This document shows, piece after piece, positions 17,183-41,928 of a stretch of 64,000 bases of DNA (position 1 is its first letter; every line of letters begins with the position of its first letter). The position numbers and the translations under genes are program-made. The DNA comes from Alphaproteobacteria bacterium (GTDB taxonomy: Bacteria > Pseudomonadota > Alphaproteobacteria > UBA828), in contig CBDCQT010000010.1 in assembly GCA_965220745.1 (NCBI GenBank), positions 32,001 through 96,000 of the forward strand, written 5' to 3'. A model generated the notes under the pieces. The model searched no databases. It worked only from the letters and a program-made list of their open reading frames with translations, and was not told the DNA's origin.

Positions 17183-17476
17183 GGTCGCCTCCCTGCCCAA
17201 AACGCATTGTTCTTGGCAGGGCATATCGGAGCCGGCAGGCCGAATGGCAAGGCTAACGCGGAGTTGCTCACCTTCCTCCGCTTCAAACGACCATACACCG
17301 CCATATGCTTGACAAAGTTTGGTCTCCCCGCTGACACTCGCGCGGCCTTGGGCGCCAAGCAACGCTGGGGCTGGAGTCGCGCACCCAACCGGGTCGCGTA
17401 CGATTTGGAGTCCCAAGCTGCCGTGGCTTCCGGTTTGGACCCACCACGCCACGACATCTAGCGACGTGAGACTATC

Positions 17477-18511
17477 GTGAAAAGCACATACAACCTCATC
17501 CCCACAAATCAGATTGACTTTGACCGGGAGAACCCAAGGATCAAGGTCGCCCTCGAGAAGTACGGCAACAAGCTTGACGAAAAGCGCATCCGTTTCGCAC
17601 TGCAAACCGCCACGGAAGGATCCACCAGCGCTTCCTCCTACCGCTCCTTAAAGGATTCTATCAGAGCAGCCCGAGGTATCTCAGTGCCCATCGTCGTCTG
17701 GTCCAACGACGATCGATTCGTGTGCGTTGACGGAAACACCCGCTTGGCAATCTACCATGAGCTCCACGAGGAGGGGGCCCCCGGCAACTGGGCAGCCATC
17801 AATTGCCTTGTGCTCGACGACCCCGATCAGCGAGACATCGAGACGATTCGGGTCACAGCCCACCTCGTAGGCGCACGCGAATGGCCCGCCTACGAGAAGG
17901 CGCGATACCTTCATCACCTGCGCAACGTCGAGTTCATGGACTACGACGAGCTCATCGCCCGGTGCGGGGGTAATAAGACGACGATCACCCAGCAAATCGA
18001 CGCCTACCACGACATGAATGAGTTTTACCGCGACGTCAGCAGCGACGACGCATTCAAGGTTGATCGGTTTAGCGGATTTGTCGAGCTTCAGAAGACGGGC
18101 GTCAAGGACGCTATTTACAGTGCGGGTTTCGATCTCCACGATTTCGGCCGCTGGATACGCGACGGTCAGATATACCGACTGGCCGATGTTCGAAAGCTCC
18201 CCCGCGTTCTTGCCGACGACGAAGCGAAAGACACATTTGTCAACGGCGGTGTCCGGTCAATCGAAGACGCCATCGACGTTGCCGAGGCCAACCGCCGAAA
18301 GGACATCCATGCTCCAACGGCCGATATCACAGTTGCCAATGCCAGCATGGCGGTACTGGCCGAAGCTCTCCTTCAGAGAATCAAAGCCCTGCCACGAGAG
18401 GACTACCTTGCACTCCGCGATCGGCATTACGAGACCGCGGACCAAGACGTTGACACCTTGAGTGATCTCGCCGAACAACTCCGCGACCTACTCCAAGATG
18501 TCTCAAAGTAA
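17477..18511 (+). CDS. ParB/Srx-like N-terminal domain protein (operon gene 1)
   Basis: DRENPRI, PIVV, VDGNTRLA, WPAYEKARY. Confidence 0.75.
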   Translation: MKSTYNLIPTNQIDFDRENPRIKVALEKYGNKLDEKRIRFALQTATEGSTSASSYRSLKDSIRAARGISVPIVVWSNDDRFVCVDGNTRLAIYHELHEEGAPGNWAAINCLVLDDPDQRDIETIRVTAHLVGAREWPAYEKARYLHHLRNVEFMDYDELIARCGGNKTTITQQIDAYHDMNEFYRDVSSDDAFKVDRFSGFVELQKTGVKDAIYSAGFDLHDFGRWIRDGQIYRLADVRKLPRVLADDEAKDTFVNGGVRSIEDAIDVAEANRRKDIHAPTADITVANASMAVLAEALLQRIKALPREDYLALRDRHYETADQDVDTLSDLAEQLRDLLQDVSK

Positions 18512-18950
18512 CGTGCATCGTCTGCTGGTTGTCGCCGTCGCGCAAGCCATACAACAGCGTCATCCGGCGATGCACGTTACAGCTGATCTACTCGAAGCTC
18601 CTGGCGATCCGGTGCCTCCGCGCATCGGCGGCCACCGTCCTGACATCGTCGCCCGTTGCAGTGCCGCCTGTCTCCAGTTCATTATCGCGGAAGCCAAGAC
18701 CGACGGCGATATCGACAACCGACATACTCGAAGTCAAATTGGTGCCTTCGTGGATCACCTCGACGCCATGACAACGGGCACCGGCACCTTCATCTTGGCC
18801 GTCAACGGACATGTCGCAGATTCAGCAAGGACTCTACTCCGCTTTGCCTGTCGTCAACGCGTGTCGTCCCGACTCCATATCAAAGTGTTCGACGGCCTCG
18901 ACTTCTGGACCCTGGGTCCCCCTGGAGCCCCCCTGTGGCGTTTGTCCTAA
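18498..18950 (+). CDS. Small PD-(D/E)XK-like nuclease-fold protein (operon gene 2)
   Basis: IGGHRPDIVA...IIAEAKT; overlaps both neighbours. Confidence 0.6.
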   Translation: MSQSNVHRLLVVAVAQAIQQRHPAMHVTADLLEAPGDPVPPRIGGHRPDIVARCSAACLQFIIAEAKTDGDIDNRHTRSQIGAFVDHLDAMTTGTGTFILAVNGHVADSARTLLRFACRQRVSSRLHIKVFDGLDFWTLGPPGAPLWRLS

Positions 18951-20437
18951 GACGCCAACCCGAACTTTCGCCCAAACATGCGGCGTATCCCTACCAGCTT
19001 GACGCCATTCGTGCCGTCAAGGATCTCACCTACGCAGCCATCTTTCATGAGCAAGGACTCGGAAAGACAAAGATTGCGATCGACCTAGCCCTGTTATGGC
19101 TGCAGAGCGACTCCGTAGATACCGTGTTCATCGTCACGAAGAAGTCGCTGGTCGAGAACTGGCGTAACGAAGTTGCGGGTCATTGTCACATCACGCCGCA
19201 CATCCTGTCCGGCAACCGAGCCCAGAACAGCGCGTCCCTCAACTCGCCAGTGCTCCTCTACGTCACCAACTACGAAACCATTGCTGCCAACGTACCGATC
19301 ATCAGATTATTCCTACAGACTTGTCGCGTCGGTTGCATCCTCGACGAGAGCCAGAAGATCAAGAATCCCGAGGCCGCCCTGACGCGTATCTTCCTAGACA
19401 TGGCCTCGTCCTTCGAGCGACGCATAATTATGACCGGAACACCCGCTGCAAACCGTCCGTATGACATCTGGGCGCAGATCAAGTTTCTTGATGGCGGTGA
19501 AGCGCTCGGTGATACCTTCGCGACTTTCAGGCAGAGAATGGATTTGCCCGCCAAACACGCGGAGGCGGCCGACTATGGCAGTCGGCTGTCCACGATCCAT
19601 CAACGTGTCGCCGCGTTTACTGTCCGAGAGACCAAGAACACGGCAGGTATCCACCTACCGGAAAAAACCATCACTGCTCATCACGTGGACTTGCCACCTT
19701 GGCAAATGGCAAAGTACGTCGCCTACCGCGACGAACTCGCCTATGAGTACGATATGAAAGGTGTTGTCGAAGTCGACGATGTTGAGAGCATTCTCAAGCG
19801 ACTACTTCGCCTAGTCCAATGTGCCTCGAATCCGGCACTCATTGACGGTCGATACGACCATGATCCCGCTAAATTTCCCCTTCTTCTTGATATGTGCGAT
19901 AACTTTACCGAAGATTCCAAGGTGATTATTTGGACCGGATTCATTGATAACGTTAACTGGCTAGCCGCCAAACTCGCAGAATTTGAGCCTGTATGTATAC
20001 ACGGCAGCTTGCCTATTCGCCAGCGCAATAGAGCCGTTGATTCTTTTACTAATTCCTCCAATTTAATTTTGATCGCCACTCCAGGTTCTGCAAAAGAGGG
20101 ACTTACTTTGACCGCCGCGAACCACGCTATCTTCTTTGACCGTGGCTTTAGCCTCGACGATTACCTCCAAGCACAAGACCGCATCCACCGTATCTCTCAG
20201 ACCCGCAATTGCTTTATCCATAATCTTATTGCCAATGATACGATCGACGAATGGGTTGATGTCTTACTGACTGCCAAGTATCGCGCGGCGCAACTAACAC
20301 AGGGCGATATCGATCCCGCTGCTTTTCACGACTACTTCCGTACAGACATTTCTGAGGTACTGCAAGGCATTCTGTTTCCGCGTCGAGCCACCTCAAGCCG
20401 TCAGTTGTCTGAGCAATCGGAGGCCACGGGCCGATGA
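18935..20437 (+). CDS. SNF2/SWI2-family helicase (operon gene 3)
   Basis: YPYQ, EQGLGKT, DESQKIKN, TGTP, EGLTLT, QAQDRIHRISQ; GTG start inferred. Confidence 0.9.
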   Translation: MAFVLRRQPELSPKHAAYPYQLDAIRAVKDLTYAAIFHEQGLGKTKIAIDLALLWLQSDSVDTVFIVTKKSLVENWRNEVAGHCHITPHILSGNRAQNSASLNSPVLLYVTNYETIAANVPIIRLFLQTCRVGCILDESQKIKNPEAALTRIFLDMASSFERRIIMTGTPAANRPYDIWAQIKFLDGGEALGDTFATFRQRMDLPAKHAEAADYGSRLSTIHQRVAAFTVRETKNTAGIHLPEKTITAHHVDLPPWQMAKYVAYRDELAYEYDMKGVVEVDDVESILKRLLRLVQCASNPALIDGRYDHDPAKFPLLLDMCDNFTEDSKVIIWTGFIDNVNWLAAKLAEFEPVCIHGSLPIRQRNRAVDSFTNSSNLILIATPGSAKEGLTLTAANHAIFFDRGFSLDDYLQAQDRIHRISQTRNCFIHNLIANDTIDEWVDVLLTAKYRAAQLTQGDIDPAAFHDYFRTDISEVLQGILFPRRATSSRQLSEQSEATGR

Positions 20438-21450
20438 ACCCTGATGAGACAAGCATCTCCATATTGGAGCATGACGTTTCCGCCCGCCACGAGCTTATTC
20501 CCATCGATCAACTGCTTTTTTTGCCCGACAATCCTCGGGTGTATGCTGCTATACGAGATATGTCCGATTTCGCTGACCTCACACCAGACGAGAAGCAGCA
20601 ACGCATCTATGAACGCTTGCTCCAAGAGCCTAGCGTCAAGAATCTTATACCTGAGATCCAGCGGGACGGTGGACTACAAGAACCCGTGATTGTCCGTTGG
20701 GACACTCGGCAAGTGATTGAAGGCAACTCGCGTTTAGCTGCTTACCGGAAATTACTTGACGAAAATTCCCAAGATGACCGCTGGACACAAATCCGCTGTC
20801 TTGTCGTAAAGACCCTTACGGATGAACAACAGACGCGACTTCTAGGTCAAGCGCATCTAGAGGGAAGAACCGAATGGTCGCCGTATGCGAAGGCTTTGTT
20901 CTGCTTTCGCTGGGTGGTTGAGGACGGGCGAGATATTGCTACTTTGACACGAGTATGCCGTTTTACTGCCGCTGAGATAAGGAAGAATGTTAAAATTATA
21001 GAACTAATGCAGCAGAATAATGATAAGATCCTATCTAATTTCAGCTATTACAACGTTCTCATCCGAAATCGGGTCATCTCATCTGCTATCGGAGATAGCC
21101 CACTACTGAAACAAACACTGTTGACCCAAATCAAATCTGAAGACTTTACCGCCCAAGAAATGCGCGAGCATCTTCCTGTCATTATAGCCAAACCGCGTAT
21201 TCTAAAAAAATACGAGAAAGGTGAAGTGACGCTTGATGAAGCCTTTGAACGCGCAAAAATTAGTGGCGCTGAACAACAGCTCAAGAAGATTCGCGACGGC
21301 CTAGACGACATCCGTTCAGAGGATATATCTCCGCTGGAACGCGATGCTCTCGGTGCTGTACAGCAGCTTGTTAGACAGATCAATCGGCACCTTAAGCGTG
21401 TCTCTGGTATGGTCGAGGCTAAACTTGCTGAGAAATCCAACAATTCATGA
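20434..21450 (+). CDS. Second ParB/Srx-like protein (operon gene 4)
   Basis: PDNPRV, GGLQEPVIV, IEGNSRLA, WSPYAKA; ATGA overlap. Confidence 0.75.
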   Translation: MNPDETSISILEHDVSARHELIPIDQLLFLPDNPRVYAAIRDMSDFADLTPDEKQQRIYERLLQEPSVKNLIPEIQRDGGLQEPVIVRWDTRQVIEGNSRLAAYRKLLDENSQDDRWTQIRCLVVKTLTDEQQTRLLGQAHLEGRTEWSPYAKALFCFRWVVEDGRDIATLTRVCRFTAAEIRKNVKIIELMQQNNDKILSNFSYYNVLIRNRVISSAIGDSPLLKQTLLTQIKSEDFTAQEMREHLPVIIAKPRILKKYEKGEVTLDEAFERAKISGAEQQLKKIRDGLDDIRSEDISPLERDALGAVQQLVRQINRHLKRVSGMVEAKLAEKSNNS

Positions 21451-23105
21451 ATGAAAGTTTGGATGCTATGATAAAAAGGAACGTTCTGCTAGTCGAACCA
21501 GGCTATCCGAACAAGTATCCTCCACTCGGCCTGATGAAGATTGCCGCCTACCATGGCCCCAACGGCCGCGGCGATAATGTGCTGTTTGTTAAGGGCGATA
21601 CGCCTGAAGCTCTTAATCGCGTCTGGGACCGCGTCTACGTAACCACTCTATTCAGTTTCGAGTGGAAGCGGACTTCCGCTGCTATCGACTTCGCACTGCG
21701 CGCCGTCCGCGGTCAGGCGGAGCGAGTATTTGTCGGCGGCATAGCGGCCACACTGATGTTTGACGAGTTTGCCGGCGAGCCACGCTGGGCGGGTGTACGC
21801 TTCATCAAGGGCCTTCTCGACCAGCCGCCCGCCCGCTCTCTGCAACTTTTCGCCGAGGACGGCGATTTCGGTGCCGATGATCTTGCTGGCACGTCGATCG
21901 AGGAATTGGTTCCCGATTACAGCATTCTCCGCCAGACTCCCTACACCTATCCAGTACGGAATGCCTACTTCGGATACGCGTCCCGGGGATGCGTCCGTCA
22001 ATGTGCCTTCTGCGGCGTTCCTAAGCTGGAGGGTGCGCAACGCGAGATGCCTCCGATCACTAGCCTTATCGCCGGCGTAGACGAGCAGTTTGGTCCGAAG
22101 AAAGACCTCATCCTTATGGACAACAACATCGCCGCCAGTTCCCGATATAAGGAGGTGATCGCCGAGATTCGGGATCTTGGGTTCCAGAGCGGCGCTATGT
22201 TCGAACGACCGGACACTCTACCCGTCAAACGACGTGTCGACTTCAACCAAGGGATCGACGCCCGCATCCTCTGCAAGACACCTATGTACCTCAAGGAGAT
22301 GGCGACGATCTGCATAGATCCTTTGCGCATCGCCTTCGACCACGTTGGGATGCGGCGGGTCTACGAGCGTTCTGTACATATGGCGGCCGAATACGGGTTG
22401 AGATCGCTGTCCAACTACATGCTTTACAACTTCATGGACACGCCGAACGACCTCTACCAGCGGATGAGCATCAACATTGAGCTCAACGAGCGCCTTGGCG
22501 TTAGGATTTGGTCCTTCCCAATGCGGTATCTGCCCGTCACGATGAAGGATCGTTCACACGTGGGCAAGAACTGGAACCGCTACTACCTCAGGTCCTTCCA
22601 GATCATGCTGCAAGCTACACACGGCGTCGTGTCAGGCAGCAACGAGTTCTTTCTCAGGGCCTTTGGAAATAGCGATGAAGAATTCGAGAGGCTTCTCGCA
22701 CTGCCACATGCGTTCATATTCCAGCGAGACTTCTATGAACACGGGGAAGGTAGACCTGTTCTCGACGAGTACCTTGCCCTGCTGCACCGGGCCACTGAAG
22801 CAGAACGCATCGAACTCATCAGCCTGCTCAGCGAAACTTTGCTCGCTCGACCACGCCGCCAAGCATTCCTTCGCCTACTTTCCGATAAGTCCACAGGCCA
22901 GCTCATCCGCGAGCTCGCACGATTCCACGCTATCGATACAAAGGCTGCGAAAGTCACAGACATAGCCAACGTCTTCCCCGAGGTGTCACCCGACCACATG
23001 CTTCCAGAGCCCGATGCGCTCGTCGAGGACGCGGGGCTCTACGAGCCGCTCGAACCGACAGCCCAAGTCACCTCCAGTCACCACGCTGAACGCGGATCCT
23101 GCTGA
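21447..23105 (+). CDS. Radical SAM protein with putative cobalamin-binding-like N-terminal domain (operon gene 5)
   Basis: YPPLGLMKIAAY, VFVGG, PDYSIL, SRGCVRQCAFC (CxxxCxxC), MDNN, DFNQGID. Confidence 0.85.
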   Translation: MNESLDAMIKRNVLLVEPGYPNKYPPLGLMKIAAYHGPNGRGDNVLFVKGDTPEALNRVWDRVYVTTLFSFEWKRTSAAIDFALRAVRGQAERVFVGGIAATLMFDEFAGEPRWAGVRFIKGLLDQPPARSLQLFAEDGDFGADDLAGTSIEELVPDYSILRQTPYTYPVRNAYFGYASRGCVRQCAFCGVPKLEGAQREMPPITSLIAGVDEQFGPKKDLILMDNNIAASSRYKEVIAEIRDLGFQSGAMFERPDTLPVKRRVDFNQGIDARILCKTPMYLKEMATICIDPLRIAFDHVGMRRVYERSVHMAAEYGLRSLSNYMLYNFMDTPNDLYQRMSINIELNERLGVRIWSFPMRYLPVTMKDRSHVGKNWNRYYLRSFQIMLQATHGVVSGSNEFFLRAFGNSDEEFERLLALPHAFIFQRDFYEHGEGRPVLDEYLALLHRATEAERIELISLLSETLLARPRRQAFLRLLSDKSTGQLIRELARFHAIDTKAAKVTDIANVFPEVSPDHMLPEPDALVEDAGLYEPLEPTAQVTSSHHAERGSC

Positions 23106-24604
23106 TGTCCGAGGATGCTCTCGTCGGCGGTGACATACTCCGCCTCGTCACTGCAGGCATGTACGACAATCCACTAGTCATCTACCGCGAATACCTTCAG
23201 AACGCCGCCGACTCCATAGCCTCTCTCAACGATGGTACCGGCTCGGTGAGCGTCACCATCGATCCAGTAGGATCGCAAGTCACCATTATGGACGATGGGA
23301 CCGGACTTTCGCCATCCGACGCTGTCCGTCGCCTAGTCCACATTGGTAACAGCACCAAAGTTCGCGGCGTCGAACGTGGACTACGTGGCATCGGTCGACT
23401 ATCGGCTCTCGCCTTCGCTGAGAACGTCCACTTCACGACGCGCACACGTGCCTCAGAACCTGTTACTCGGGTGTCCTGGAGCAGTCGTGCATTGCGCAAA
23501 CTTGATGTCGCTCACGTTGATGCCAGGACCGCAATCGAAGCCTGTACAACCGTCCAATCCCTTTCAAACGATCATTGGCCTGATCGATTTTTTCAGGTGA
23601 CAGTCGACGGAGTTACTCGACACGCCGCTTCGAGCATTCTCAACAGGGATGCTGTCAGGAGCTACATCGCAGAGGTCTGCCCAGTGCCCCTGGACTCTTC
23701 CTTCCCGCTTGAAGGCGAGATCCAGAACTTCCTTACCGCTCACACGGATTATTTTGTGCTCGACGTTCGGATCAACGGAGATCAGGAGCCGATAGTACGG
23801 CCTTTCAAACAGGCAATCCCTCTAACGGACGATTTTTCCGCCGTATTTGAGCGGTTGGAAACTCAGGTGATTCCTCAAGTTGATCAAGGCCACCCTGCCG
23901 CTGTTCTGTGGCTCGCACACACACCCTACGCCGGCTCCATATCCCGACGACTGAGCATCCGTGGCCTCCGTGCACGTGCCGGAAATATCCAGATCGGCTC
24001 GGATGGTGTTTTCGAACATCTCTTCCACGAGACACGCTTCAACGGTTGGTGCGTAGGCGAGGTACATATTATCGACAGTCGTATAGTCCCGAACGCTCGC
24101 CGCGACTACTTCGAGGCTGGTCCCCATCTCCGTAACCTCGAAAACCACATCGGCGCCATCGCCCACAAGATCAGCTCCCGGTGCCGTCGCGCTTCATCTC
24201 AGCGAAACAAGCTCCGAGCCGCAAGACTGGTCATTAATCAGGCCAGCTGCGCCCGCGAACTAGCCACCTCCGGGTATCTCCGCGCCGAGGACGCTTCACA
24301 ACTGCTCAGGCTTCAACGCGAACGCTTACTCCAAGTCAGAGAAACTCTCCAACATGTTCAAGGCGTGACCTCGCACTCTAGTCTAGACGACCTTGACCTT
24401 TGCCAGGCTCAACTGGACGCCGTCAAGTTCGACGCCGAACCTTCCCTGATCGGCATTCCACCTGACTCTGTCGGTAATCTCCTATCGGCCTTTGGTGTGC
24501 TCTCCCAGTCCCTGCCGCCGGATACGGCCGTTGACTTGATCGAAACCATTATGCGTCGGCTGTCCGCCGATATGTCAGCCTCCAAGGCTGCCAAGAAGGC
24601 TTAA
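23105..24604 (+). CDS. GHKL/MORC-like (HATPase_c) ATPase (operon gene 6)
   Basis: REYLQNAADS (N box), DDGTG (G1), GLRGIGRLS (G2), PNARRDYFE; TGATG overlap. Confidence 0.85.
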   Translation: MSEDALVGGDILRLVTAGMYDNPLVIYREYLQNAADSIASLNDGTGSVSVTIDPVGSQVTIMDDGTGLSPSDAVRRLVHIGNSTKVRGVERGLRGIGRLSALAFAENVHFTTRTRASEPVTRVSWSSRALRKLDVAHVDARTAIEACTTVQSLSNDHWPDRFFQVTVDGVTRHAASSILNRDAVRSYIAEVCPVPLDSSFPLEGEIQNFLTAHTDYFVLDVRINGDQEPIVRPFKQAIPLTDDFSAVFERLETQVIPQVDQGHPAAVLWLAHTPYAGSISRRLSIRGLRARAGNIQIGSDGVFEHLFHETRFNGWCVGEVHIIDSRIVPNARRDYFEAGPHLRNLENHIGAIAHKISSRCRRASSQRNKLRAARLVINQASCARELATSGYLRAEDASQLLRLQRERLLQVRETLQHVQGVTSHSSLDDLDLCQAQLDAVKFDAEPSLIGIPPDSVGNLLSAFGVLSQSLPPDTAVDLIETIMRRLSADMSASKAAKKA

Positions 24605-25044: not shown

Positions 25045-25768
25045 TCAGCCACTTGAGCTTACCTCACTCCCATCCAAGGCCCGCGCGATGGCCGCACCGA
25101 TGCGCTCCGCCGCCGCCTCGGTCTCGCGGTCTCCGACATGGGCGTAGCGCAGCGTCATGCTCGGCCGCTTGTGACCCAGCAGGCGCGAGACGACGGGCAG
25201 CGGGATGCCCTGCAAGACGGCGTGACTTGCGAACGTGTGTCTGAGGTCATGCAGGCGCACGTCTTCGAGCCCCGCTCTCTTGCGTACCGAACGCCAGAGC
25301 GGCAGGCCGGACGACAGCGGCCGCCCGGGATCGAGCGGCGAGGGGAAGACGCAGGCGCTCCCCGAGCGTGGCTGACGCTCCAGGATGGCGCGGGCCGGCG
25401 CGCTCAGAAGGACGGTTCTCGGTCCGCCCTTGGCGTCGACCAGATTGAGCGTGTTCCCGTCGATGTCCTGCCAGCGCAGAGTAACGATCTCGTTCCTTCG
25501 ACAGCCCGTCAGCAACAGAAGACGGATGATGTCCGCCTGCCGGGCGCGTGACGGTCGCACGCTGCCATAGTGGTCAAGCTCGTGGTGGAGGCGACGGACC
25601 TCCTCGCGCGACAGGAAGCGCGTGAGCTTCGGACGGGGATTCCGCCTGATGCCGCGGACCGGATTCGTATCGAGATGACCGCAGACGACTGCATGGTTCA
25701 GCATCCGGCGGAGCAGGTTCAGCCCGTGATTGGCCCCGCCGGGAGCGGTCCGGCTGTACTCGTCGAAC
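25045..25768 (-). pseudogene. Tyrosine recombinase/integrase, N-terminus removed at IS3 junction
   Basis: LLTGCRRNEI, HDLRHTFAS, LLGHKRPSMTLRYAH; reading frame runs into the IS3 left end. Confidence 0.88.
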
Positions 25769-27031
25769 TGATCCTCCCCCATCGGATTGGTCCACCCTTA
25801 GGTTATGGAAAGAGGAGGACCGACGATGGCAAGGAAGCGTTACAAGCCCGAGGAGATCGTGAGCCTGCTGCGGCGGGCTGAGGTTCTGAACGGCCAGGGC
25901 ATGTCGATGGCGGACGCGATCCGCGAGCTTGGGATCAGCGAGGTTACCTTCTACCGCTGGCGCAAGGAGTATGCCGGGATGAGCGGCGATCAGCTCCGCC
26001 GTTTGAAGGAGCTCGAGAAGGAGAACGAGCGGCTGCGCCGTGCGGTCTCCGATCTGACGCTGGACAAGCAGATTCTCAAAGAGGCCGCAGGGGGAAACTT
26101 CTAAGCCCCTCGCGCCGGCGCCAGTGCATCGATCATGTCTGTGACCGGCTCGGGGTCTCGGAACGCCGCGCTTGCCGGGTGCTGGGGCAGCACCGCTCGA
26201 CCCAGCGCCGCATCCCGCGCGGCCGCGACGACGAGGACCGCCTGGTCGCGTACATGATCGAGCTGGCCCGCCAGTACGGCCGTTACGGCTATCGCCGCAT
26301 CGCGGCCCTGCTTCGCGATGCCGGCTGGCAGGTCAACGACAAGCGGATCGAGCGCTTGTGGCGGCGCGAGGGGCTGAAGGTGCCCGGCAAGCAACCGAAG
26401 CGGGGCCGGCTTTGGCTCAATGACGGCTCCTGCATCCGGCTGCGCGCCGAGAGGGCGGATCACGTCTGGTCCTACGACTTCGTCCATCACCGGACGTATG
26501 ACGGCAGGGCCTTCCGCATGCTCAACGTCCTGGACGAGTTCACCCGCGAGAGCCTGGTCATCCGGGTGCGCAGGAGGCTTTCCTCGATCGACGTCATCGA
26601 TGTGCTGACCGACCTGTTCATCCTGCGCGGCATTCCGACCTGGATCCGTTCCGACAACGGTCCGGAGTTCGTCGCCGAGGCCGTCAGGCGGTGGATCGCT
26701 GCGGTCAGCGCCCGCACCGCCTTCATCGAGCCGGGCTCACCCTGGGAGAACGGCTACATCGAGAGCTTCAATGCGCGGCTGCGCGACGAGCTCCTGAACG
26801 GGGAGATCTTCTACACCCTGAAGGAAGCCCAGGTTCTCATCGAATCGTGGCGGTGCCATTACAACGCCGTGCGCCCACACAGCAGCCTGGGATACCGGCC
26901 GCCGGCCCCGGAGACGATCATCATGCCAAGCTGGCCGCCCGGCTCCGCTACGCTCCGCCGGTCACCCAGCTTGGCCGGCAAACCCGCAATGCACTAACAT
27001 TCGACTTGGACCAGTCGACGGGGGCAGGTCA
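25769..27031 (+). mobile_element. IS3-family (IS407-like) insertion sequence
   Basis: TG...CA ends with imperfect IRs tgatcctcccccatcggattggtcca / tggaccagtcgacgggggcaggtca; no target duplication. Confidence 0.88.
25826..26997 (+). CDS. IS3 transposase OrfA (25826-26104) / OrfB (to 26997), programmed -1 frameshift
   Basis: OrfA HTH MARKRYKPEEIV; slippery GGGGGAAAC near 26090-26098; OrfB WSYDF, SDNGPEF, ENGYIESFN. Confidence 0.92.
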
Positions 27032-27260
27032 GTCTGTCCAGCCGTGTCAGGAGGCTATATCCCTCATCCTTGATGCGGATCGATTCGCCTGACGTCAGGT
27101 TTCCCATGTAGCTCCCTGTCTTGCCGCCCACAATTATCGTGTGACCGTACTTGGGGAAGTTGTAGGCGTAGTCAGCCAAGCTGACGGCTACAGGCTCCGC
27201 GCGAACCGTGCCGATCCCGACCAGACCTATGACTGCCATTGCTGCGATGATCGCTTTCAT
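27032..27260 (-). pseudogene. Putative secreted protein truncated by IS3
   Basis: Signal-peptide-like MKAIIAAMAVIGLVGIGTVRA; frame runs into the IS3 right end. Confidence 0.45.
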
Positions 27261-27515
27261 ATCCACCCTTCTCATGCTCGGGTTGCGACGCCGGCGGGCG
27301 CCGGGCCGTTGTCACCACCCACAGGTACGTGAGAAGTCCTGCCTATTTACCAAGACCAGGGAGCTACCCCGGCCCGAGTGCAGGCTGTTGTATTCGGCAG
27401 GTGACCCGACAGAGCGGGACCTGCGAGTGGTGACGGAAGTAGCGTCACAGAAAGTGACGGTAGTCGCAATAGCGTGGTATGATGGGGGTGGCGGTTAAGA
27501 ACAAGGAGTCGCGCC

Positions 27516-27701
27516 GTGGACGATGCGGATACCCACGCCAAGACAGCAGTCAGGGTCAAGCCATCCAGTTACCAGCCGAGCAAGGCGGAGCTGGAGGAAG
27601 ACATGAGCGTCGATGCAACGCCGGAGGCCCTGGCGGACTGCATCGGGCAGTCAGTGGCGGTGACGAAGCCTCAAGTGCGAACCGGGACCGATACCGGCTA
27701 A
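27516..27701 (+). CDS. Small hypothetical protein
   Basis: aggag RBS; YQPSKAELEEDMSVDATPEALA. Confidence 0.45.
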   Translation: MDDADTHAKTAVRVKPSSYQPSKAELEEDMSVDATPEALADCIGQSVAVTKPQVRTGTDTG

Positions 27702-27764
27702 GCCAAGATCGACGAGAGTACCAATGCGGAAGAGCGGCGCGCCCGATGGGCGCTCTTGTTACTT

Positions 27765-28061
27765 TCAGTTATAACTCCCTTCGTAAAGATCGTCCCAATC
27801 GGGGTTGTGCGCGACGATGAGATTGACCTTCCAGGCGCGCGGCCAGTGCTTCATGGTCCGTTCCCGCTGGATGGCCGCGGCAATGTCCTCGTGGCGCTCC
27901 GCGTAGACGAGCCGGGTCAGGCGGTACCGCTTGGTGAACCCCTCGACCAGGCCCTCGCGGTGTTCCCACGCCCTGCGTACAACGTTACTGGTGACACCGA
28001 GATAGAGCGTGCCGTTGGGTCGGTTGGTCATGATGTAGACCCAGCCCCCGCCCTCTCTCAT
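27765..28061 (-). CDS. GIY-YIG nuclease (small UPF0213-like, REP-adjacent)
   Basis: WVYIMTNRPNGTLYLGVTSNVVRRAWEHREG...AIQRERTMKHWPRAWK...NPDWDDL. Confidence 0.9.
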   Translation of the reverse strand: MREGGGWVYIMTNRPNGTLYLGVTSNVVRRAWEHREGLVEGFTKRYRLTRLVYAERHEDIAAAIQRERTMKHWPRAWKVNLIVAHNPDWDDLYEGSYN

Positions 28062-28082
28062 GTCCCCATGCTGCAATCCGTG

Positions 28083-28129
28083 AATGCCCGGAACACCCCC
28101 GGGCCTTGATCCGGGGGCCGAGCATGACG
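28083..28129. repeat. Compound CGTC-type REP beside GIY-YIG gene
   Basis: atgcccggaacacccccgggccttgatccgggggccgagcatgacg. Confidence 0.6.
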
Positions 28130-28401
28130 ACGTGGGGCAATAGCCCGGTCTTGGCTCAGGACTCCACGCCACGCCCGGCCGTGAGCTCGTGATTGTACCG
28201 TGCTGCCTCGGCGCGCGCCTCGGTCCCCCCCTTTCGCCTCGCTCTCCGCGTCGGAGAGCTCCTCGACGGTATGCACTTGACGTTCTCGCCGTTTCCTGGC
28301 TCATACGCTTGGATTGAGATAATCGCGCGTCGGTTCCTTCAACAGCGCCAATTGGAAGATCTCAATGATGCGCTGCTTTATTTAGGAGGGGAGTATCGGT
28401 T

Positions 28402-28926
28402 TTGAGTGCTTACTTTGAGTGGAATGAGGATTTGCCATTTCTTGCACAACAAAATCGAGAGGTCTTTGCGCGTTTTGGCCTAGCAATGTACTACTCACAG
28501 TGCTTAGAAACACAAATCGGAATTATGCTGTCCACAATGTACAATGTGAACTTTTTTGACAGTTCTATGGAGGAACGAGATATTTTCTTTGAGAAAAATT
28601 TGTCTAAGACACTGGGCGCAATGGAGAAAGATCTTGAAAATAGAGCGTCGCTACCGCCTAATCTAGAAGTCAAGTTGAAAGATGCAGTTAAGCTTAGAAA
28701 CTGGCTAGCGCATCGCTATTTCTACGAGCGCGGAAAAGATATCCTGCTGTCTGATGGGCGAGAAAGAATGATTCTAGAACTTCAAGAGAAGGTTGATTTT
28801 CTGAAGAACGTAGATGAGGAATTCGTGAACATACTGAAAGTGTGGCGGCGCGATAAGGGAATATCCGATGAGCAAGTACAAGAAGAAATGCAAAAACTTC
28901 TCTCAGACTCCAACATAAGCTTCTGA
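28402..28926 (+). CDS. Hypothetical AT-rich helical protein (possible HEPN-like RNWLAH motif)
   Basis: 174-aa ORF, aggagg RBS, LRNWLAHRYF (Rx4H). Confidence 0.6.
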   Translation: MSAYFEWNEDLPFLAQQNREVFARFGLAMYYSQCLETQIGIMLSTMYNVNFFDSSMEERDIFFEKNLSKTLGAMEKDLENRASLPPNLEVKLKDAVKLRNWLAHRYFYERGKDILLSDGRERMILELQEKVDFLKNVDEEFVNILKVWRRDKGISDEQVQEEMQKLLSDSNISF

Positions 28927-37499: not shown

Positions 37500-37588
37500 G
37501 CCCGCGTGGCGGAATTTGGTAGACGCAACGGACTTAAAATCCGTTGGCCCTATGGGCCGTCCCGGTTCGAGTCCGGGCGCGGGCACCA
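37500..37588 (+). tRNA. tRNA-Leu (anticodon TAA)
   Basis: Acceptor stem gcccgcg/cgcgggc, D-loop ggtagac, anticodon arm acgga-cttaaaa-tccgt, long variable arm, ggttcgagtcc T-arm, encoded CCA. Confidence 0.95.
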
Positions 37589-37676: not shown

Positions 37677-39398
37677 TTAAGTATTGTGTGAGGTGACAAG
37701 TTTGGCCTCCGTCAGATTCTCCTGTGACTTGGAGCGCGTGACATAGCCGGCTTCGAGATCCTGGCTTCGGCGCTGATCGCAACGTTCTGCTGGGTCGCCC
37801 CATCCACCGCCGCCGGCCGTCTGCTGGCTTACTATATCCCCCATTCTTAGCGGTATCTCGGCGCCCTTGGATGCGAAATTGGGCGATGCAGGTTGGAAGC
37901 CATCGCCGCGGTCGATCAGATAGGCGCCGGGCGCGCCTTCGCCACCGCCGTCGAATCCCTTGGCCCCGAACTTACAGCGGTCAGCCACGAAGCTGAGTTC
38001 CGCGACATCGGAGAGGATCTCGTAATCTCGCCTCGTGCCGAGCCCGCCTCGGTATTTCCCGTCACCTCCAGTATCCGCCCGCAGTTCGTACCGCCTTAGC
38101 CTGACCGGAAACTTCAGCTCCAAAGCCTCTGCGGGCATGTTGCGGCAGTTCCCGACGATTGAGAACAGGGCGCTTTCGCCATCCTTCTCCGGCGTCGCCC
38201 CCCATGCACCTTCGGGATACTGGTAGAGAATTTGCATTCCAGCTTTGCCGTAGCAGGTTAGCAGCATGTTGTTGGACGACCCTTGGTCGCCAGCAATGAG
38301 ATGTGGACCGTTGGGCATGGTCGAAAGCGCCGCCATCAAGGCGTTGACAATCCGATGCGAGGTCTCGTTGCCAGCCGTGCAGGGAGCCGGAAAGGTTGGA
38401 TGCACAACCGTGCCTTCACGAGACACGATTTTGATCGGCCGATAGCAACCATGGTTGGGGGCTATTTCTGGATCGGTGGCGGCCTGCAGACAAAGGTAGG
38501 TTGCCGATGCGGTCATGTAAGGAACGGAATTGATCGGTCCACTTGCCTGCGGATCGGTGTCGCTGTAGTCGATCACCAAAGCGTCGCCGTTGACGACGAC
38601 CTTGACTCGGATCGTAATCGGCTCGTCGGTAATGCCGTCGTTGTCCATGATGTCTTCGCCGAAGTACTCTCCATCGGGCCAAGACCTGATTACCGCGCGC
38701 ATTCGAGCTTCAGAATCCGCGCGCGATCGTTCCTCCGCAGATGCAATGGTAGCCCGGCCATACCGCTTGCACAGGGCTTGATATCGCAAAGCGGCACTGC
38801 GGTTCGCGGATACCTGCGCCGCGAGATCTCCCTTCATGTTTTTTGGCACGCGGACGTTGTTGAGAATGAACTCGTAAACGTCACGTTGCCGCTCGCCCGC
38901 GCGGTACAACCAGACAGGGGGAATGCGCAGCCCTTCCATGAAGTTGTCTTTTGCCCGAGAGTAAAAGCTGCCCGGAACGGCACCTCCGACGTCGGCATGA
39001 TGAGCCCGGTTTGCAGCGAAGGCGACCAGTTCGCCATCGTAAAAGATTGGGCTGACCATCGTGAGGTCCGGAAGATGAGTTCCGCCGCGATAAGGGTCGT
39101 TTGAAATGATGGCGTCACCGGGCTTGAATTCCCGGAGGGGCGCGAGCTCCTCGATCGCCTGACGCACGGCGTACTGCAAGGCTCCAAGGTGGATCGGCAA
39201 AAACTCGCCCTGCGCTGTCAGCCGCGCCTTCGCATCGAACAGCCCGCAGGAAAAGTCGCTGCCTTCATTGAATATCTCCGAATAGGCGGTTTGCCGAAGC
39301 GTAACCCCCATCTCGCGGGAGACCGCGACAAGCGAGCTTCTGATGACACTGAACTGGATCGGATCGAAATTTCTAGCGACGGCACTCGTGTCAGTCAT
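37677..39398 (-). CDS. Hydantoinase B/oxoprolinase subunit
   Basis: TAYSEIFNEGSDFS, NDPYRGGTHLPD, HHADVGG..PGS, GGGGWGDP. Confidence 0.92.
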   Translation of the reverse strand: MTDTSAVARNFDPIQFSVIRSSLVAVSREMGVTLRQTAYSEIFNEGSDFSCGLFDAKARLTAQGEFLPIHLGALQYAVRQAIEELAPLREFKPGDAIISNDPYRGGTHLPDLTMVSPIFYDGELVAFAANRAHHADVGGAVPGSFYSRAKDNFMEGLRIPPVWLYRAGERQRDVYEFILNNVRVPKNMKGDLAAQVSANRSAALRYQALCKRYGRATIASAEERSRADSEARMRAVIRSWPDGEYFGEDIMDNDGITDEPITIRVKVVVNGDALVIDYSDTDPQASGPINSVPYMTASATYLCLQAATDPEIAPNHGCYRPIKIVSREGTVVHPTFPAPCTAGNETSHRIVNALMAALSTMPNGPHLIAGDQGSSNNMLLTCYGKAGMQILYQYPEGAWGATPEKDGESALFSIVGNCRNMPAEALELKFPVRLRRYELRADTGGDGKYRGGLGTRRDYEILSDVAELSFVADRCKFGAKGFDGGGEGAPGAYLIDRGDGFQPASPNFASKGAEIPLRMGDIVSQQTAGGGGWGDPAERCDQRRSQDLEAGYVTRSKSQENLTEAKLVTSHNT

Positions 39399-41428
39399 TG
39401 TTTAAGCCACTTCAGTTCGAGGAAGCCCGGCTTGACCGCCGAGCAGCTGGCGTCTGGCGGAACGACGATGGTTGCGTCGGACTGTTCGATGATGGCTGGT
39501 CCAAGTGTCGTCTCTGTCGTCTCGACATCTCTACGCTTGAGAATCTGCGTCTCGAGCCAGCCCTGTTCGGGCCCCCAGTAGACTTTCCGGCTCCGAACGT
39601 CAGCCTCCAGCGATGGCCAACGAGGATCGCCGAACTCTTTGTTCTCGGCGACGCTCACGGCGGCGACACGAATATTCACAGCTTCGACCGAGCTATCACG
39701 AAGCGAATGCCCGTAACGCGCCTCATGAGAGTGATGAAAGTTCTCTGCCGCCTTGTCGGTATCGATCTGCCCCAACTCGACTGGAATGGTAATCTCGTGC
39801 GTTTGTCCGGCGTACCTGAGATCCAGTGCGGCGGAAACAACCACATTGCCATTCTTGGCGTCGTCGTGAAGCTCGGCAAGCGTTTCCTCGCTCAACTGTG
39901 TGAACATGTCGTGGAGCGCCATTGCTTCGAGATCCGCCAACGGCACAAAGATCGTCTTCAGGCGCTCGCGGCGCCCATCGGCAAGCAACATGCCTTGAGC
40001 GGATGCGACGCCTGGGTAGGCGGGAACGACCACTGAAGACATCTCCAGTTCCGCCGCAACCTCTAGGCCGTGAGCGCCCCCACCACCACCCAGTGCAACA
40101 AGGGCATAGTCGCGCGGATCACGGGAGCGTTCGATGGAGACCGACCGGATTGCATCTGCCATATTGCTGTTGACGATACGCAAGATGCCCCACGCCGTCT
40201 CTTCGCGGCTGAGGCCCAGTCGTACCGCTAACGCCTCAATGGATTTCCACGCTCGTTCCCGGTCGAGGCGGAGCCCGCCGCCGATGGACAAGCGGGGATT
40301 GTAGCGGCCGAGGGCGATCGCCGCGTCAGTCACCGTCGGCTCCACACCACCCTTCCCATAGCAGGCAGGGCCGGGAACCGCGCCGGCGGAACGAGGGCCA
40401 ACGAGGATGGTCCCACCTTGATCGACCCAAGCGATGCTGCCACCACCAGCGCCGACACTGACGATGTCGAGGCAAGGTATCTGGATCGGATACCCCACGA
40501 GCTCGATGTAGGTATTGCGATCGGGCTCACCGTTCGTGACCGCCGCCACGTCGGTGCTCGTGCCCCCCATATCGAAACTGATCACATTGCTTCGTCCGAG
40601 AGCCTTGGCGATCTCAAGTGCCAAAATCACCCCGCCAGCGGGACCGGAGAGCAGGGACTTCACCGGCACGCGACGCGCTTGAAGCGGATCTGCAAGGCCG
40701 CCGGAAGACTCCATGATCCGGAAGCCCTCTTCCGTCAAGGAATGGGGAAGCGACCTTTCCAAGCCCTCCAGATAGTTGCTCATGATGGGACGGGCAATGG
40801 CATTGATACAGGTGGTGCTTGTCCTTTCAAACTCGCGATAGTGCGGCAAAACCTCGTGGGATAAAGACACGAACACGTTGTCGCCCAGGCGTTCCGCGAT
40901 CGATTTGCCTAGCAAGAGCTCGTGTGCTGGATTTCTAAACGAGAACAACAGGCAGACCGCGACGCTGCTCACACCCGAAGCCTCGATCTCATCGACAACG
41001 CGCTTGATCTCGTCCGCCTGAAGCGGCTCGACGATACTTCCGTCCGCGGCAATTCGTTCTCGCACTTCCAATCGCTGTTTTCGCTTGATCAACGGTTCCG
41101 GCTTCTTTTGCGCGAGATTGAACAGATCTTTTCGGTCCCCGCGCATGATCTCCAAAACATCCCGGAAACCATCGGTCGTGATCAGGAGGCAATCGGGTCG
41201 ATCCGAAGTTAGAAGAGCATTCACGACGACAGTCGTACCGTGCCTTAACGTCGAAATTTCTGTCGGATTCTCGCAGACGGTGGCCAGCGCGGCCAAGAAG
41301 CCCGCTTCCAGCTTTCCTGGCGTGGTGGCAGACTTCCCAACAAACCAGGAGCCATCGGCCCGACGGGTGATGGCGTCCGTAAATGTTCCGCCCATGTCTA
41401 TTGCAATGTCCATGTGTTCGCTCGACAT
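39395..41428 (-). CDS. Hydantoinase A/oxoprolinase subunit
   Basis: IDMGGTFTD, HGTT, SGPAGG, DMGGTSTD, GAGGGS, GPRSAGAVPGPACY. Confidence 0.92.
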   Translation of the reverse strand: MSSEHMDIAIDMGGTFTDAITRRADGSWFVGKSATTPGKLEAGFLAALATVCENPTEISTLRHGTTVVVNALLTSDRPDCLLITTDGFRDVLEIMRGDRKDLFNLAQKKPEPLIKRKQRLEVRERIAADGSIVEPLQADEIKRVVDEIEASGVSSVAVCLLFSFRNPAHELLLGKSIAERLGDNVFVSLSHEVLPHYREFERTSTTCINAIARPIMSNYLEGLERSLPHSLTEEGFRIMESSGGLADPLQARRVPVKSLLSGPAGGVILALEIAKALGRSNVISFDMGGTSTDVAAVTNGEPDRNTYIELVGYPIQIPCLDIVSVGAGGGSIAWVDQGGTILVGPRSAGAVPGPACYGKGGVEPTVTDAAIALGRYNPRLSIGGGLRLDRERAWKSIEALAVRLGLSREETAWGILRIVNSNMADAIRSVSIERSRDPRDYALVALGGGGGAHGLEVAAELEMSSVVVPAYPGVASAQGMLLADGRRERLKTIFVPLADLEAMALHDMFTQLSEETLAELHDDAKNGNVVVSAALDLRYAGQTHEITIPVELGQIDTDKAAENFHHSHEARYGHSLRDSSVEAVNIRVAAVSVAENKEFGDPRWPSLEADVRSRKVYWGPEQGWLETQILKRRDVETTETTLGPAIIEQSDATIVVPPDASCSAVKPGFLELKWLKQ

Positions 41429-41928
41429 GACCTGCGCCCCTTGGCTCCCTCGTTCACAAGGAGAGTCCTGATTCTGTCTGCATAGCGCATCGTCGATGGG
41501 TTGGCACGCGCCGGGCACGCAGCCCTCAACCCGCTCAAGCGCTCGGCGCGCAACCCACGCGCCGAACAACAAGCGTTGGCGTTTGACCCTTTGGCATCCG
41601 ACAGTCAGTACATTGCTGAGGCGATCGGCGTTCAATCTGCGCGGTGAACAACACCGCGGGCCGCTTGTGGCACCATCCAGGCGCGGCGCCGGCGCCGACG
41701 CATCGCGTGACGGCCGGCAGGATTGTTGCTCACCCTGCTGATCGAACCCCATCCGCGTGATAACATGTTGAATCTCTTGAACGCCGAGGGATGGAACGCT
41801 GCCTGCGAACGGCACTTGATCGGAGCGGCGGATCACGCCCGCCGGCGGATCTCGACGCTCAAGCACCTGCGCAAGGGATATACGTGGGACGATCAGGAAT
41901 TCCTGCGAGGCCCCGAGGAACAGGAATC

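Follow-up and report, generated by a model that had tools for sequence, protein, structure and literature searches.

A radical SAM enzyme and an Hsp90-like ATPase as the constant core of a mobile bacterial cassette with a candidate role in DNA marking and defence

Introduction

Within a stretch of 64,000 nucleotides of an alphaproteobacterial genome (hereafter the window; positions 32,001 to 96,000 of contig CBDCQT010000010.1, assembly GCA_965220745.1, lineage UBA828), we analysed a gene for a radical S-adenosylmethionine (SAM) enzyme that is followed directly by a gene for an Hsp90-like ATPase. Both genes stay together in nearly all related loci, where they are combined with exchangeable sets of helicase, nuclease and ATPase genes. 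We read the pair as the constant core of a horizontally mobile, Dpd/Dnd-like DNA-marking defence system and assign to this reading a probability of roughly 0.45; we hold it probable that the cassette is, in one form or another, a conflict or defence system directed at DNA. The DNA-marking reading was drawn from the constancy of the core, the dependence of swappable modules on it, the recurrence of ParB-type and DGQHR-type partners including fusions, and the mobility of the whole element. A first-pass annotation, made from the letters of the DNA alone, had taken the radical SAM protein for a class B enzyme that might modify DNA or a nucleotide, and this interpretation is partly supported by the results described here.

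The radical SAM gene and its relatives

The translation of the gene holds NKYPPLGLMKIAAYH, ERVFVGGIAA, GCVRQCAFCG, LMDNN and VDFNQG, i.e. the motifs quoted in the first-pass annotation. For their evaluation, 47 homologues with 52–86% identity to the window protein were aligned. The cysteines of the CX3CX2C motif (C182, C186 and C189) are unchanged in all 47 sequences, and the same holds for D225-N226-N227 and D265-F266-N267-Q268-G269 as well as for P25-P26-L27-G28-L29 and V96-G97-G98 in the N-terminal part. The gene and the parts of its product are located as follows.

21447..23105, + strand: radical SAM gene, ATG start, 552 amino acids
21480..21881, + strand: N-terminal Rossmann-type, cobalamin-binding-like domain (residues ~12–145), delimited by DSSP on the model
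21990..22013, + strand: CX3CX2C [4Fe-4S] cluster motif (C182, C186, C189), invariant in 47/47 sequences
22578..22928, + strand: C-terminal helical extension (residues 378–494), helices H378-390 through H485-494

Curated families did not capture the protein. Its sole match in NCBIfam was RimO (E 8.8e-4; 18.4 bits against a cut-off of 356.95), and in PADLOC no family, viperin models included, was matched at E ≤ 0.01, by which an identity as prokaryotic viperin (pVip) was rejected. Sequence searches against the PDB, carried out with the protein and with a 47-sequence profile, reached the cluster loop of RimO, TM_1862 and MgmA alone (E 0.014–0.63) and are, as loop matches, uninformative on the family. 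Judged from its motifs and its predicted fold, the gene product is a radical SAM enzyme of no curated family, and cleavage of SAM is predicted.

A homologue search yielded 5678 proteins at E ≤ 0.001 among 8000 scored candidates, and a library clustered at 50% gave 1606 representatives at E ≤ 0.001, 803 at 1e-10 and 272 at 1e-30. Only one of the 120 closest homologues (77–100% identical) has a precomputed Pfam match (PF04055), and family members are annotated merely as 'radical SAM protein'. The window protein also has a match among phage protein families, to PHROG 9298 ('radical SAM domain protein', E 8e-39).

The family includes length variants, of which the metagenome proteins P0131 and P0138 are examples. 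Forms of ~620–690 amino acids carry an apparent insert inside the N-terminal domain, and variants of ~800 amino acids possess a long helical C-terminal extension. An Hsp90-like nature of the 380-residue C-terminal extension of the ~800-residue variants (P0138) was rejected at an hhalign probability of 0.5%. A fusion of radical SAM enzyme and Hsp90 was not seen, as no homologue above 966 amino acids was found, which is weak evidence.

The Hsp90-like ATPase as partner

The strongest regularity of the family, missed by the first-pass annotation, is the pairing of the radical SAM gene with the gene directly downstream:

23105..24604, + strand: Hsp90-like GHKL ATPase (499 amino acids), NCBIfam HSP90 family PRK14083, E 2.7e-13

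In a genome scan, 130 stretches were matched, of which 90 encode a relative, and 80 loci with 53–87% identity of the radical SAM protein were kept; neighbouring genes were clustered by BLASTP (E ≤ 1e-8, at least 50% coverage). In 76 of these 80 loci the radical SAM gene is followed immediately by the gene for the Hsp90-like ATPase, and in 77 the ATPase gene is present anywhere in the locus. It also adjoins the radical SAM gene in 13 of 15 loci from IMG/VR and on both plasmids inspected.

The ATPase reaches 49 bits with the NCBIfam HSP90 family, for which the cut-off is 455, and is therefore termed Hsp90-like and not HtpG. Its structural model (predicted local distance difference test (pLDDT) 88.9) was matched by Foldseek to the N-terminal and middle domains of TRAP1, Hsp90, GRP94 and HtpG (E 1.6e-15 to 1e-12, ~390–460 columns). 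Residues E29, N33, D36, D63, G65, G67, G92, G95 and G97, which we take to be the Bergerat ATP-binding and ATP-lid motifs, are invariant in 42 sequences.

For a possible contact of both proteins, complexes of residues 8–500 of the radical SAM protein with the ATPase were predicted in three runs alongside three controls. The pair scored 0.40, the best of the three controls 0.00, and one of the three runs 0.02; at least 96% of the contacts are shared between runs, with a partner pLDDT of at least 81. In calibration, 116 of 157 solved complexes attained this mark, as against 2 of 215 mismatched pairs; at 0.60 or lower, just 18 of the 157 solved complexes and both of the passing mismatches did so.

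Accessory modules around the constant core

At least one of four accessory modules was found in 73 of the 80 loci, and six loci carry two. The most frequent (47/80) is the ParB–nuclease–SNF2–ParB module that is also present in the window. A HerA module, consisting of a protein of 364 amino acids, HerA (identified by its match to PDB 7f6d, E 5.7e-26) and a second Hsp90-like ATPase, was found in 14 loci, a large DGQHR protein of ~770 amino acids (TIGR03187, E 1.5e-57, above cut-off) in 10, and a module composed of a ~630-residue GHKL ATPase and an uncharacterised ~336-residue protein in 8 (L050, L057, L059, L067, L074, L032, L040 and L042). The ~630-residue ATPase shows weak matches to BbrUII-type restriction enzyme, MutL and MzaB. 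In at least four of the seven loci free of modules, a contig end cuts off the locus or the radical SAM gene is itself truncated.

The SNF2 module may precede the core, follow it or be inverted (downstream or inverted in at least 13 loci), and this variable placement marks it as a separate unit. The 364-residue protein upstream of HerA matched nothing in the PDB (12-sequence profile), NCBIfam, PADLOC or PHROG. Marinitoga camini virus 1 encodes a homologue of it (27% identity) with the annotation Rad50/Mre11-associated exonuclease, and the DGS motifs of the 364-residue protein are presumably of the NurA type; on these two grounds we call it putatively NurA-like. By BLASTP, the HerA-module proteins have no similarity to the PIN-like and DGQHR proteins of plasmid pNL1, which is described below.

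No recurring biosynthetic genes were found in the 80 genome loci, the 15 IMG/VR loci or the inspected plasmid loci. The first-pass annotation had stressed a purely DNA-processing context free of biosynthetic genes and had named a clustering of homologues with small-molecule or lipid loci as the outcome that would speak against it. The DNA-processing context recurs in the 80 genome loci, 12 plasmid records and 15 IMG/VR loci, and no small-molecule or lipid locus was found.

Two further protein types were noticed in the surroundings. A protein of ~1135 amino acids that matches PADLOC TmtA (E 1e-91) is encoded just downstream of the core in two loci (L044:4185-7586 and L062:11456-14872), and the PADLOC candidate-system protein PDC-S01 (E 5e-50) occurs near the core in six.

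Composition of the six-gene cassette

In the window, the core and the SNF2 module form one run of overlapping genes:

17459..24602, + strand: whole mobile cassette, six genes, 7.1 kb, low content of guanine plus cytosine (GC)
17477..18511, + strand: ParB-like protein 1 (344 amino acids), TIGR03764 ParB, E 7.3e-5 (22.5 bits against 143.75)
18498..18950, + strand: small PD-(D/E)xK-like protein (~150 amino acids); the open reading frame (ORF) begins at 18462 and has its conserved Met at 18498
18935..20437, + strand: SNF2-family helicase (~500 amino acids); the ORF opens at 18656, and the GTG start at 18935 was deduced from homologue lengths
20434..21450, + strand: ParB-like protein 2 (338 amino acids), overlapping the radical SAM start by 4 nucleotides (ATGA)

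The GC content is 0.51–0.56 at 18–24 kb versus 0.67–0.73 in the flanks and the genome. The genes overlap by 1–16 nucleotides, so that no space is left for a precursor-peptide gene inside the cassette. Between 17000 and 25200, promoter-like sites (3 versus 3.9 in shuffles) and terminator-like sites (7 versus 6.8) were not in excess.

ParB-like protein 1, kept in 49 of the 80 loci, matches PHROG 3694 (E 9e-9), ParB-like partition PHROGs and PADLOC PDC-M38A (E 1e-6). ParB-like protein 2 matches the same PHROG 3694 (E 3e-12) and the ParB-like partition PHROG 620 (E 7.5e-5), and its Rhizobium homologue is annotated as 'ParB N-terminal domain-containing protein'; it has no NCBIfam family, no DGQHR match and no BLASTP similarity to the pNL1 DGQHR protein. 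The small protein has a homologue in 41 of the 80 loci and no match in the PDB, NCBIfam, PADLOC or PHROG. Over 42 sequences it shows the pattern H..LV...D...PP.I...PD...I.EAK...D...Q...F, and its PD...ExK motif suggests a nuclease-like protein. Homologues of the SNF2 helicase are 485–522 amino acids long; below cut-off it matches the SCO1167/SCO6262 helicase (E 6e-39) and ZorD (E 9e-21) in NCBIfam, and in PADLOC it matches ZorD (E 1e-38) and DpdE (E 1e-31). DpdA and DpdC were not matched by any of the six cassette proteins in PADLOC or NCBIfam. The first-pass claim that all neighbours belong to DNA-acting families stands for the two ParB-like proteins, the SNF2 helicase and, by its motif, the PD...ExK ORF, which the first-pass annotation had not mentioned; it fails for the Hsp90-like ATPase downstream, which is not itself of a DNA-acting family.

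In the 37 loci with all six genes, median identities are 63% for the radical SAM protein, 59% for SNF2, 55% for ParB-like 1, 46% for the small nuclease-like protein, 44% for the Hsp90-like ATPase and 40% for ParB-like 2. The radical SAM gene is thus the most conserved gene of the cassette.

Plasmids, viruses and exchange between phyla

Twelve plasmid records contain a radical SAM homologue of 54–63% identity. The radical SAM gene abuts an annotated DGQHR gene in 11 of these records, and the twelfth is unannotated. Among the carriers of cassette relatives are conjugative plasmids of cultured, non-pathogenic strains. On pNL1 of Novosphingobium aromaticivorans DSM 12444 (DGQHR, radical SAM and ATPase genes SARO_RS17520–17530), genes for a PIN-like protein, an ATP-binding protein, a DGQHR protein, the radical SAM enzyme and an ATP-binding protein follow each other, with a large DGQHR gene on the opposite strand. 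On pR132505 of Rhizobium leguminosarum WSM1325 (RLEG_RS34120–34150), the core is accompanied by the SNF2 module, a DGQHR gene and a pair of genes for a PIN-like protein and an ATPase. All seven plasmid records with SNF2 homologues of at least 37% identity also have the radical SAM gene, and five radical SAM records are without such an SNF2 homologue, a one-way dependence that is expected if the motor-nuclease module needs the core.

In the 15 IMG/VR loci, the SNF2 module was found in 6 and the HerA module in 4. Marinitoga camini virus 1 encodes a 31%-identical, shorter radical SAM homologue beside HerA and an exonuclease, and the link to HerA persists at 31–34% radical SAM identity in this virus and in 4 IMG/VR loci. 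The Bacteroides phage LoVEphage (L084, MW660583.1) encodes a short, 25%-identical radical SAM homologue among a cytosine methyltransferase gene, a gene similar to those of 3′-phosphoadenosine-5′-phosphosulfate (PAPS) reductases and Dam methyltransferase fragments; for the wider family, this locus may be a phage setting of DNA modification.

By blastn, collinear blocks cover 17459–24594 at 82.6% identity in locus L004 and 17466–24594 at 81.4% in L005, and the block of L006 ends at 24602. Genomes with such cassette relatives are titled Vicinamibacterales and Candidatus Binatia (82.6% and 81.4%; L004 and L005) and Alphaproteobacteria (78.5%; L013), and full-length homologues were found in 2 of 20 other genomes of the same genus as the window. 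The low-GC island, the patchy occurrence and the cross-phylum identity identify the cassette as an accessory element exchanged between phyla. Several of the 80 loci are titled by names of sponge symbionts (Ca. Poribacteria, Ca. Poriferihabitaceae, Ca. Spongiihabitans thiooxidans), which together with nucleotide identities of 78–83% suggests recent exchange within one kind of community.

The window copy is chromosomal and lies beside a short recombinase gene and an insertion sequence (IS) element, with no other plasmid or phage genes. On its right (25045–28926) lie remnants of mobile elements, with genes for a short tyrosine recombinase of 245 amino acids (XerA/XerC-like, E 8e-23) and an IS3 transposase (26179–26997, E 2e-61, above cut-off). 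An ORF at 27765–28304 (− strand) has a C-terminus that is GIY-YIG-like by eye only, and a low-GC ORF at 28402–28926 has a weak HepT match (E 1.2e-3).

Farther away in the window, an ABC-type ATPase of 604 amino acids of the OLD/AriA/GajA kind is encoded at 57960–59774 (− strand; PADLOC: AriA E 1e-29, GajA E 1e-15, Old E 1e-14). Its gene stands alone in a second low-GC islet (0.47 versus ~0.68) and is probably another defence gene. A tRNA-Leu(TAA) gene at 37500–37588 is followed by a region of lower GC content (0.58–0.61 at 38000–42000), which may be another integrated element.

Ties to DpdB and comparison with known systems

Nearly the full length of the small DGQHR protein of pNL1 is covered by a match to PADLOC DpdB (E 7e-11). 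In three homologues (P0212, P0271 and P0272), which are 47–52% identical over the fused region, a DGQHR/DpdB-like region is fused N-terminally to the radical SAM part, with domain matches of E 1e-8 to 1e-11 that remain below the family cut-offs. In P0272, the radical SAM part can be aligned with the window protein over residues 13–431 of the latter (E 1e-66). P0212 alone is a singleton cluster; the three related fusions taken together indicate that the fusion was kept in evolution.

In the Dpd system, DpdA, DpdB and DpdC carry out the modification that places 7-deazaguanine in DNA, and DpdD-K the restriction. The cassette and its relatives resemble this system as follows: in relatives, a DGQHR/DpdB-like protein adjoins or is fused to the radical SAM enzyme, the SNF2 helicase is similar to DpdE (see above), and a mobile island contains a core separable from helicase and nuclease modules. 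In contrast to Dpd, the cassette is without DpdA, DpdC and preQ0 genes and has the radical SAM enzyme in the catalytic slot; the Hsp90-like ATPase is obligatory, and the partners in the window are of the ParB-N and not of the DGQHR type. Since DpdA and DpdC are unmatched, the cassette is not a Dpd system and only similarly built. According to PMC10164549, the ATPase activity of DpdB is needed for the insertion of preQ0 into DNA by DpdA.

A modification core with the ParB-superfamily protein DndB and alternative, often decoupled restriction modules is likewise described for Dnd/Ssp systems in PMC10853773. However, no homologues of DndA, DndC, DndD or DndE are encoded in the cassette, and DndC is, by the same paper, a PP-loop enzyme outside the radical SAM superfamily. 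With viperins the system shares a radical SAM enzyme in contexts resembling defence islands but differs by its N-terminal Rossmann domain, by obligatory ATPase and DNA-motor partners and by the lack of a PADLOC match. A functional analogy is offered by 5mYOX176 and ParB176, since in PMC13229309 a phage ParB homologue activates the thymine dioxygenase on double-stranded DNA (dsDNA) and is required for this base modification; 5mYOX176 is, in contrast, an Fe(II)/2-oxoglutarate dioxygenase of phage hypermodification with no Hsp90-like partner.

Similar by description is a neighbourhood of 'HSP90 chaperone and Radical SAM enzyme' with a PAACC effector, to which one sentence of a preprint refers (bioRxiv 10.64898/2026.10.19.760177). 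In the terms of that sentence, HSP90 and radical SAM protein types in an immune-type operon are common to both, whereas the effector there is a predicted cyclase and not a ParB/SNF2/HerA module. Beyond this sentence, no description of the system was found in the open full-text literature, subscription journals and the figures and supplements of the preprint being outside the search.

Predicted fold and enzyme class

An AlphaFold2 model of the radical SAM protein was computed from the alignment (mean pLDDT 82.6, predicted template modelling score (pTM) 0.79). It consists of an N-terminal alpha/beta domain (residues ~12–145), a radical SAM barrel (~170–360) and a helical C-terminal region (378–494), and the tail formed by the last 39 residues (514–552) is disordered. 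The barrel fold and the invariant CX3CX2C motif bear out the first-pass assignment to the radical SAM enzymes, and the C-terminal extension noticed there is helical throughout in the model. A Foldseek search against the PDB gave 23 matches at E ≤ 0.001, each of them a radical SAM enzyme that carries an N-terminal Rossmann domain (MgmA, OxsB, TsrM, MiaB, AprD4, MtaB, TokK, RimO and CysS). Judged from the PDB titles, several of these structures are complexes with nucleic acid (MiaB with RNA). With VIA-align, the best ten matches of the whole model have Z 12.6–14.2 (AprD4 14.2, MgmA 13.9, MtaB 13.7, MiaB 13.1, TsrM 12.9, RimO 12.9, CysS 12.6), and the barrel (residues ~170–400) aligns to HemN, SuiB, SkfB, lysine 2,3-aminomutase and lipoyl synthase at Z 8–9.2.

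Residues 7–144 align to the cobalamin domains of AerR (Z 9.3), MetH (8.8) and IcmF (8.0–8.1). Receiver domains are matched at a similar Z of 7.8–8.2, and the cobalamin-type fold alone is therefore not specific. AprD4, the best match of the whole model, is not known to depend on cobalamin. We thus regard the N-terminal domain of the model as cobalamin-binding-like at the level of the fold, at which VIA-align cannot separate class B enzymes from AprD4 or methylthiotransferases. Likeness to the class B enzymes MgmA, TsrM, OxsB, TokK and CysS comprises the two-domain fold (Foldseek E 1e-8 to 5.5e-4, VIA-align Z 9.3–13.9) and the invariant residues T66-T67-L68 and G97-G98, which resemble the (S/T)xL...GG pattern, a cobalamin-domain motif. 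The window protein differs from them by identities of only 9–16% in structural alignments, by profile matches confined to the cluster loop and by a context of DNA enzymes instead of biosynthesis.

Family searches gave little sign of a B12-binding domain: PF02310 is absent from the precomputed Pfam matches of the 120 closest homologues, and no B12 family of NCBIfam was matched by the window protein. Divergent members match BchE, MJ_1487, MJ_0865 and Sden_1168 at 18–25 bits against cut-offs of 251–575, and PF02310 is present in one distant homologue (P0347) and in 21% of the members of one ESM-Atlas cluster. The first-pass proposal of a cobalamin-binding-like N-terminal domain therefore holds for the fold, and class B membership and methylation are candidate features that these families do not bear out. 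The host genome encodes a cobalamin-dependent MetH above the family cut-off, so that cobalamin is plausibly available, which is permissive only.

Methylthiotransferases of the MiaB/RimO/MtaB kind fit the model equally well (VIA-align Z 12.7–13.7), and MiaB acts on nucleic acid, its PDB titles showing complexes with RNA. In these enzymes, three conserved N-terminal cysteines bind an auxiliary [4Fe-4S] cluster, and the C-terminus is formed by a beta-rich TRAM domain. In the window protein, no invariant or nearly invariant cysteine precedes C182 in the alignment of 47 homologues, and the C-terminus is helical in place of TRAM. Because of these two features, and with a RimO score far below the cut-off, an identity as methylthiotransferase was rejected.

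Discussion

In the DNA-marking reading, the radical SAM enzyme would use radical chemistry to mark the DNA of its own host, and the mark might be a C-methyl group or another C-alkyl group introduced with the aid of cobalamin. A nucleoside triphosphatase (NTPase) of the ParB superfamily, ParB-like in the window and DGQHR/DpdB-like elsewhere, would help the enzyme, and the Hsp90-like ATPase could serve it as an ATP-driven clamp or scaffold. DNA without the mark would be acted on by the swappable motor-plus-nuclease module, i.e. the ParB, PD-(D/E)xK-like, SNF2 and ParB proteins of the window and, elsewhere, the NurA-like protein with HerA or a PIN-like protein with an ATPase. More specifically, an uncharacterised radical-derived mark such as a C-methylation or C-alkylation beyond ordinary methyltransferases might be written on dsDNA as the self-label of a cross-phylum 7-kb immune cassette, with the ParB/DpdB-type NTPase and the Hsp90-like clamp loading the enzyme; this detailed version is doubtful.

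Several points weigh against the DNA-marking reading. DNA modification, defence and cobalamin binding are predictions throughout. The combination of an invariant core and exchangeable nuclease modules is also compatible with a sensor-effector design, and for an Hsp90-like partner a protein client would be as natural as DNA. In PADLOC, this partner gave marginal matches only (TmtA, E 2e-3), and its contact with the radical SAM protein is weakly supported by the predicted complexes. In the window, as in most loci that have the SNF2 module, the ParB genes accompany this module and not the radical SAM gene, and 24 of the 80 loci have no ParB-superfamily gene at all; a tight coupling of ParB and radical SAM proteins is therefore not universal. 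Moreover, the 80 loci were found by query-derived peptide patterns and represent close relatives, mostly from metagenome-assembled genomes, in which genes were called approximately as the longest ORFs in GC-rich DNA.

Instead of DNA, the radical SAM enzyme could act on a free nucleotide, yielding a chain terminator, a depleted or poisoned nucleotide or a signal, with the NTPases and the ATPase supplying or sensing it and the nucleases as effectors. Viperins make 3′-deoxy-3′,4′-didehydro (ddh) nucleotides, and OxsB, which is among the best fold matches (Foldseek E 3.9e-8, VIA-align Z 11.7), acts on 2′-deoxyadenosine phosphates. Phages commonly encode shorter relatives of the family (PHROG 9298) and often have enzymes of the nucleotide pool, and ParB-family proteins bind and hydrolyse nucleoside triphosphates, a CTP-binding domain being described in PMC13229309. 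We nevertheless consider this explanation unlikely: PADLOC viperin models are unmatched, nucleotide kinases, phosphatases or transporters do not recur in the 80 loci, and the DpdB-like fusions point to DNA, as DpdB works on DNA together with DpdA. A modified or activated protein, be it the Hsp90-like partner, a client or an effector, is a further candidate substrate. The dyad would then be a sensor that restrains the nuclease-helicase effectors until infection, with no mark on DNA. Such a role would suit the Hsp90 N-terminal and middle-domain fold of the partner (E 1.6e-15 to TRAP1), its weak predicted contact with the radical SAM protein (0.40 versus 0.00 for the controls), the combination of a constant core with exchangeable effector modules that is typical of sensor-effector defence, and the protein modifiers among the top fold matches (RimO and, by its PDB title, MgmA). 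The preprint sentence cited above, whose family is matched by description only, reads the HSP90–radical SAM neighbourhood as toxin-antitoxin-like control (bioRxiv 10.64898/2026.10.19.760177). But the overlapping genes of the cassette include no small peptide or conserved client gene, the radical SAM protein is far more conserved than its supposed substrate (63% versus 44% median identity), and fusions involve the DGQHR domain and not the ATPase, although the latter is weak evidence given that no homologue above 966 amino acids was found. A protein substrate thus appears rather unlikely to us.

The occurrence of the cassette on conjugative plasmids, IMG/VR viral contigs and a temperate virus also raises the question of whether it serves the mobile element itself, either by anti-restriction hypermodification of its own DNA or as a ParB-based module for maintenance or plasmid conflict. 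Distant phage relatives do lie among DNA methyltransferase genes (LoVEphage), and work cited in PMC10853773 places ParB/Srx enzymes in conflicts of conjugative plasmids. For self-protection alone, however, the cassette would hardly need its own helicase-nuclease module, and the window copy is chromosomal and free of other plasmid or phage genes. In addition, ParB-like 1 scores far below the ParB cut-off and ParB-like 2 matches no NCBIfam family, so that we regard a service to the mobile element as improbable. By far the least convincing is an ordinary biosynthetic class B enzyme for a natural product, lipid or cofactor that stands among DNA-related neighbours by chance. Family members do match BchE, a B12 radical SAM family of ladderane lipids and a P-methyltransferase family at E 2e-4 to 6e-6, but these matches lie far below the cut-offs, no biosynthetic gene recurs in the loci surveyed, and the recurring neighbours are all of ATPase, helicase, nuclease and ParB types.

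The DNA-marking reading remains our preferred one. By analogy, the layout of the cassette appears to be that of known modification-restriction islands such as Dpd and Dnd/Ssp, and what would be new is a radical SAM enzyme with an Hsp90-like ATPase in the catalytic core. The family is large, almost unannotated, strongly conserved and without a PADLOC model, and it is shared across phyla at 81–83% nucleotide identity. If the reading is true, bacteria would possess a further, radical-based route of DNA modification beside methyltransferases, the sulfur insertion of Dnd/Ssp and the base exchange of Dpd, and Hsp90-like ATPases would have a new role in DNA-directed immunity. Even without a DNA substrate, an obligatory pair of radical SAM enzyme and Hsp90-like ATPase combined with swappable nuclease modules would represent an undescribed defence architecture.

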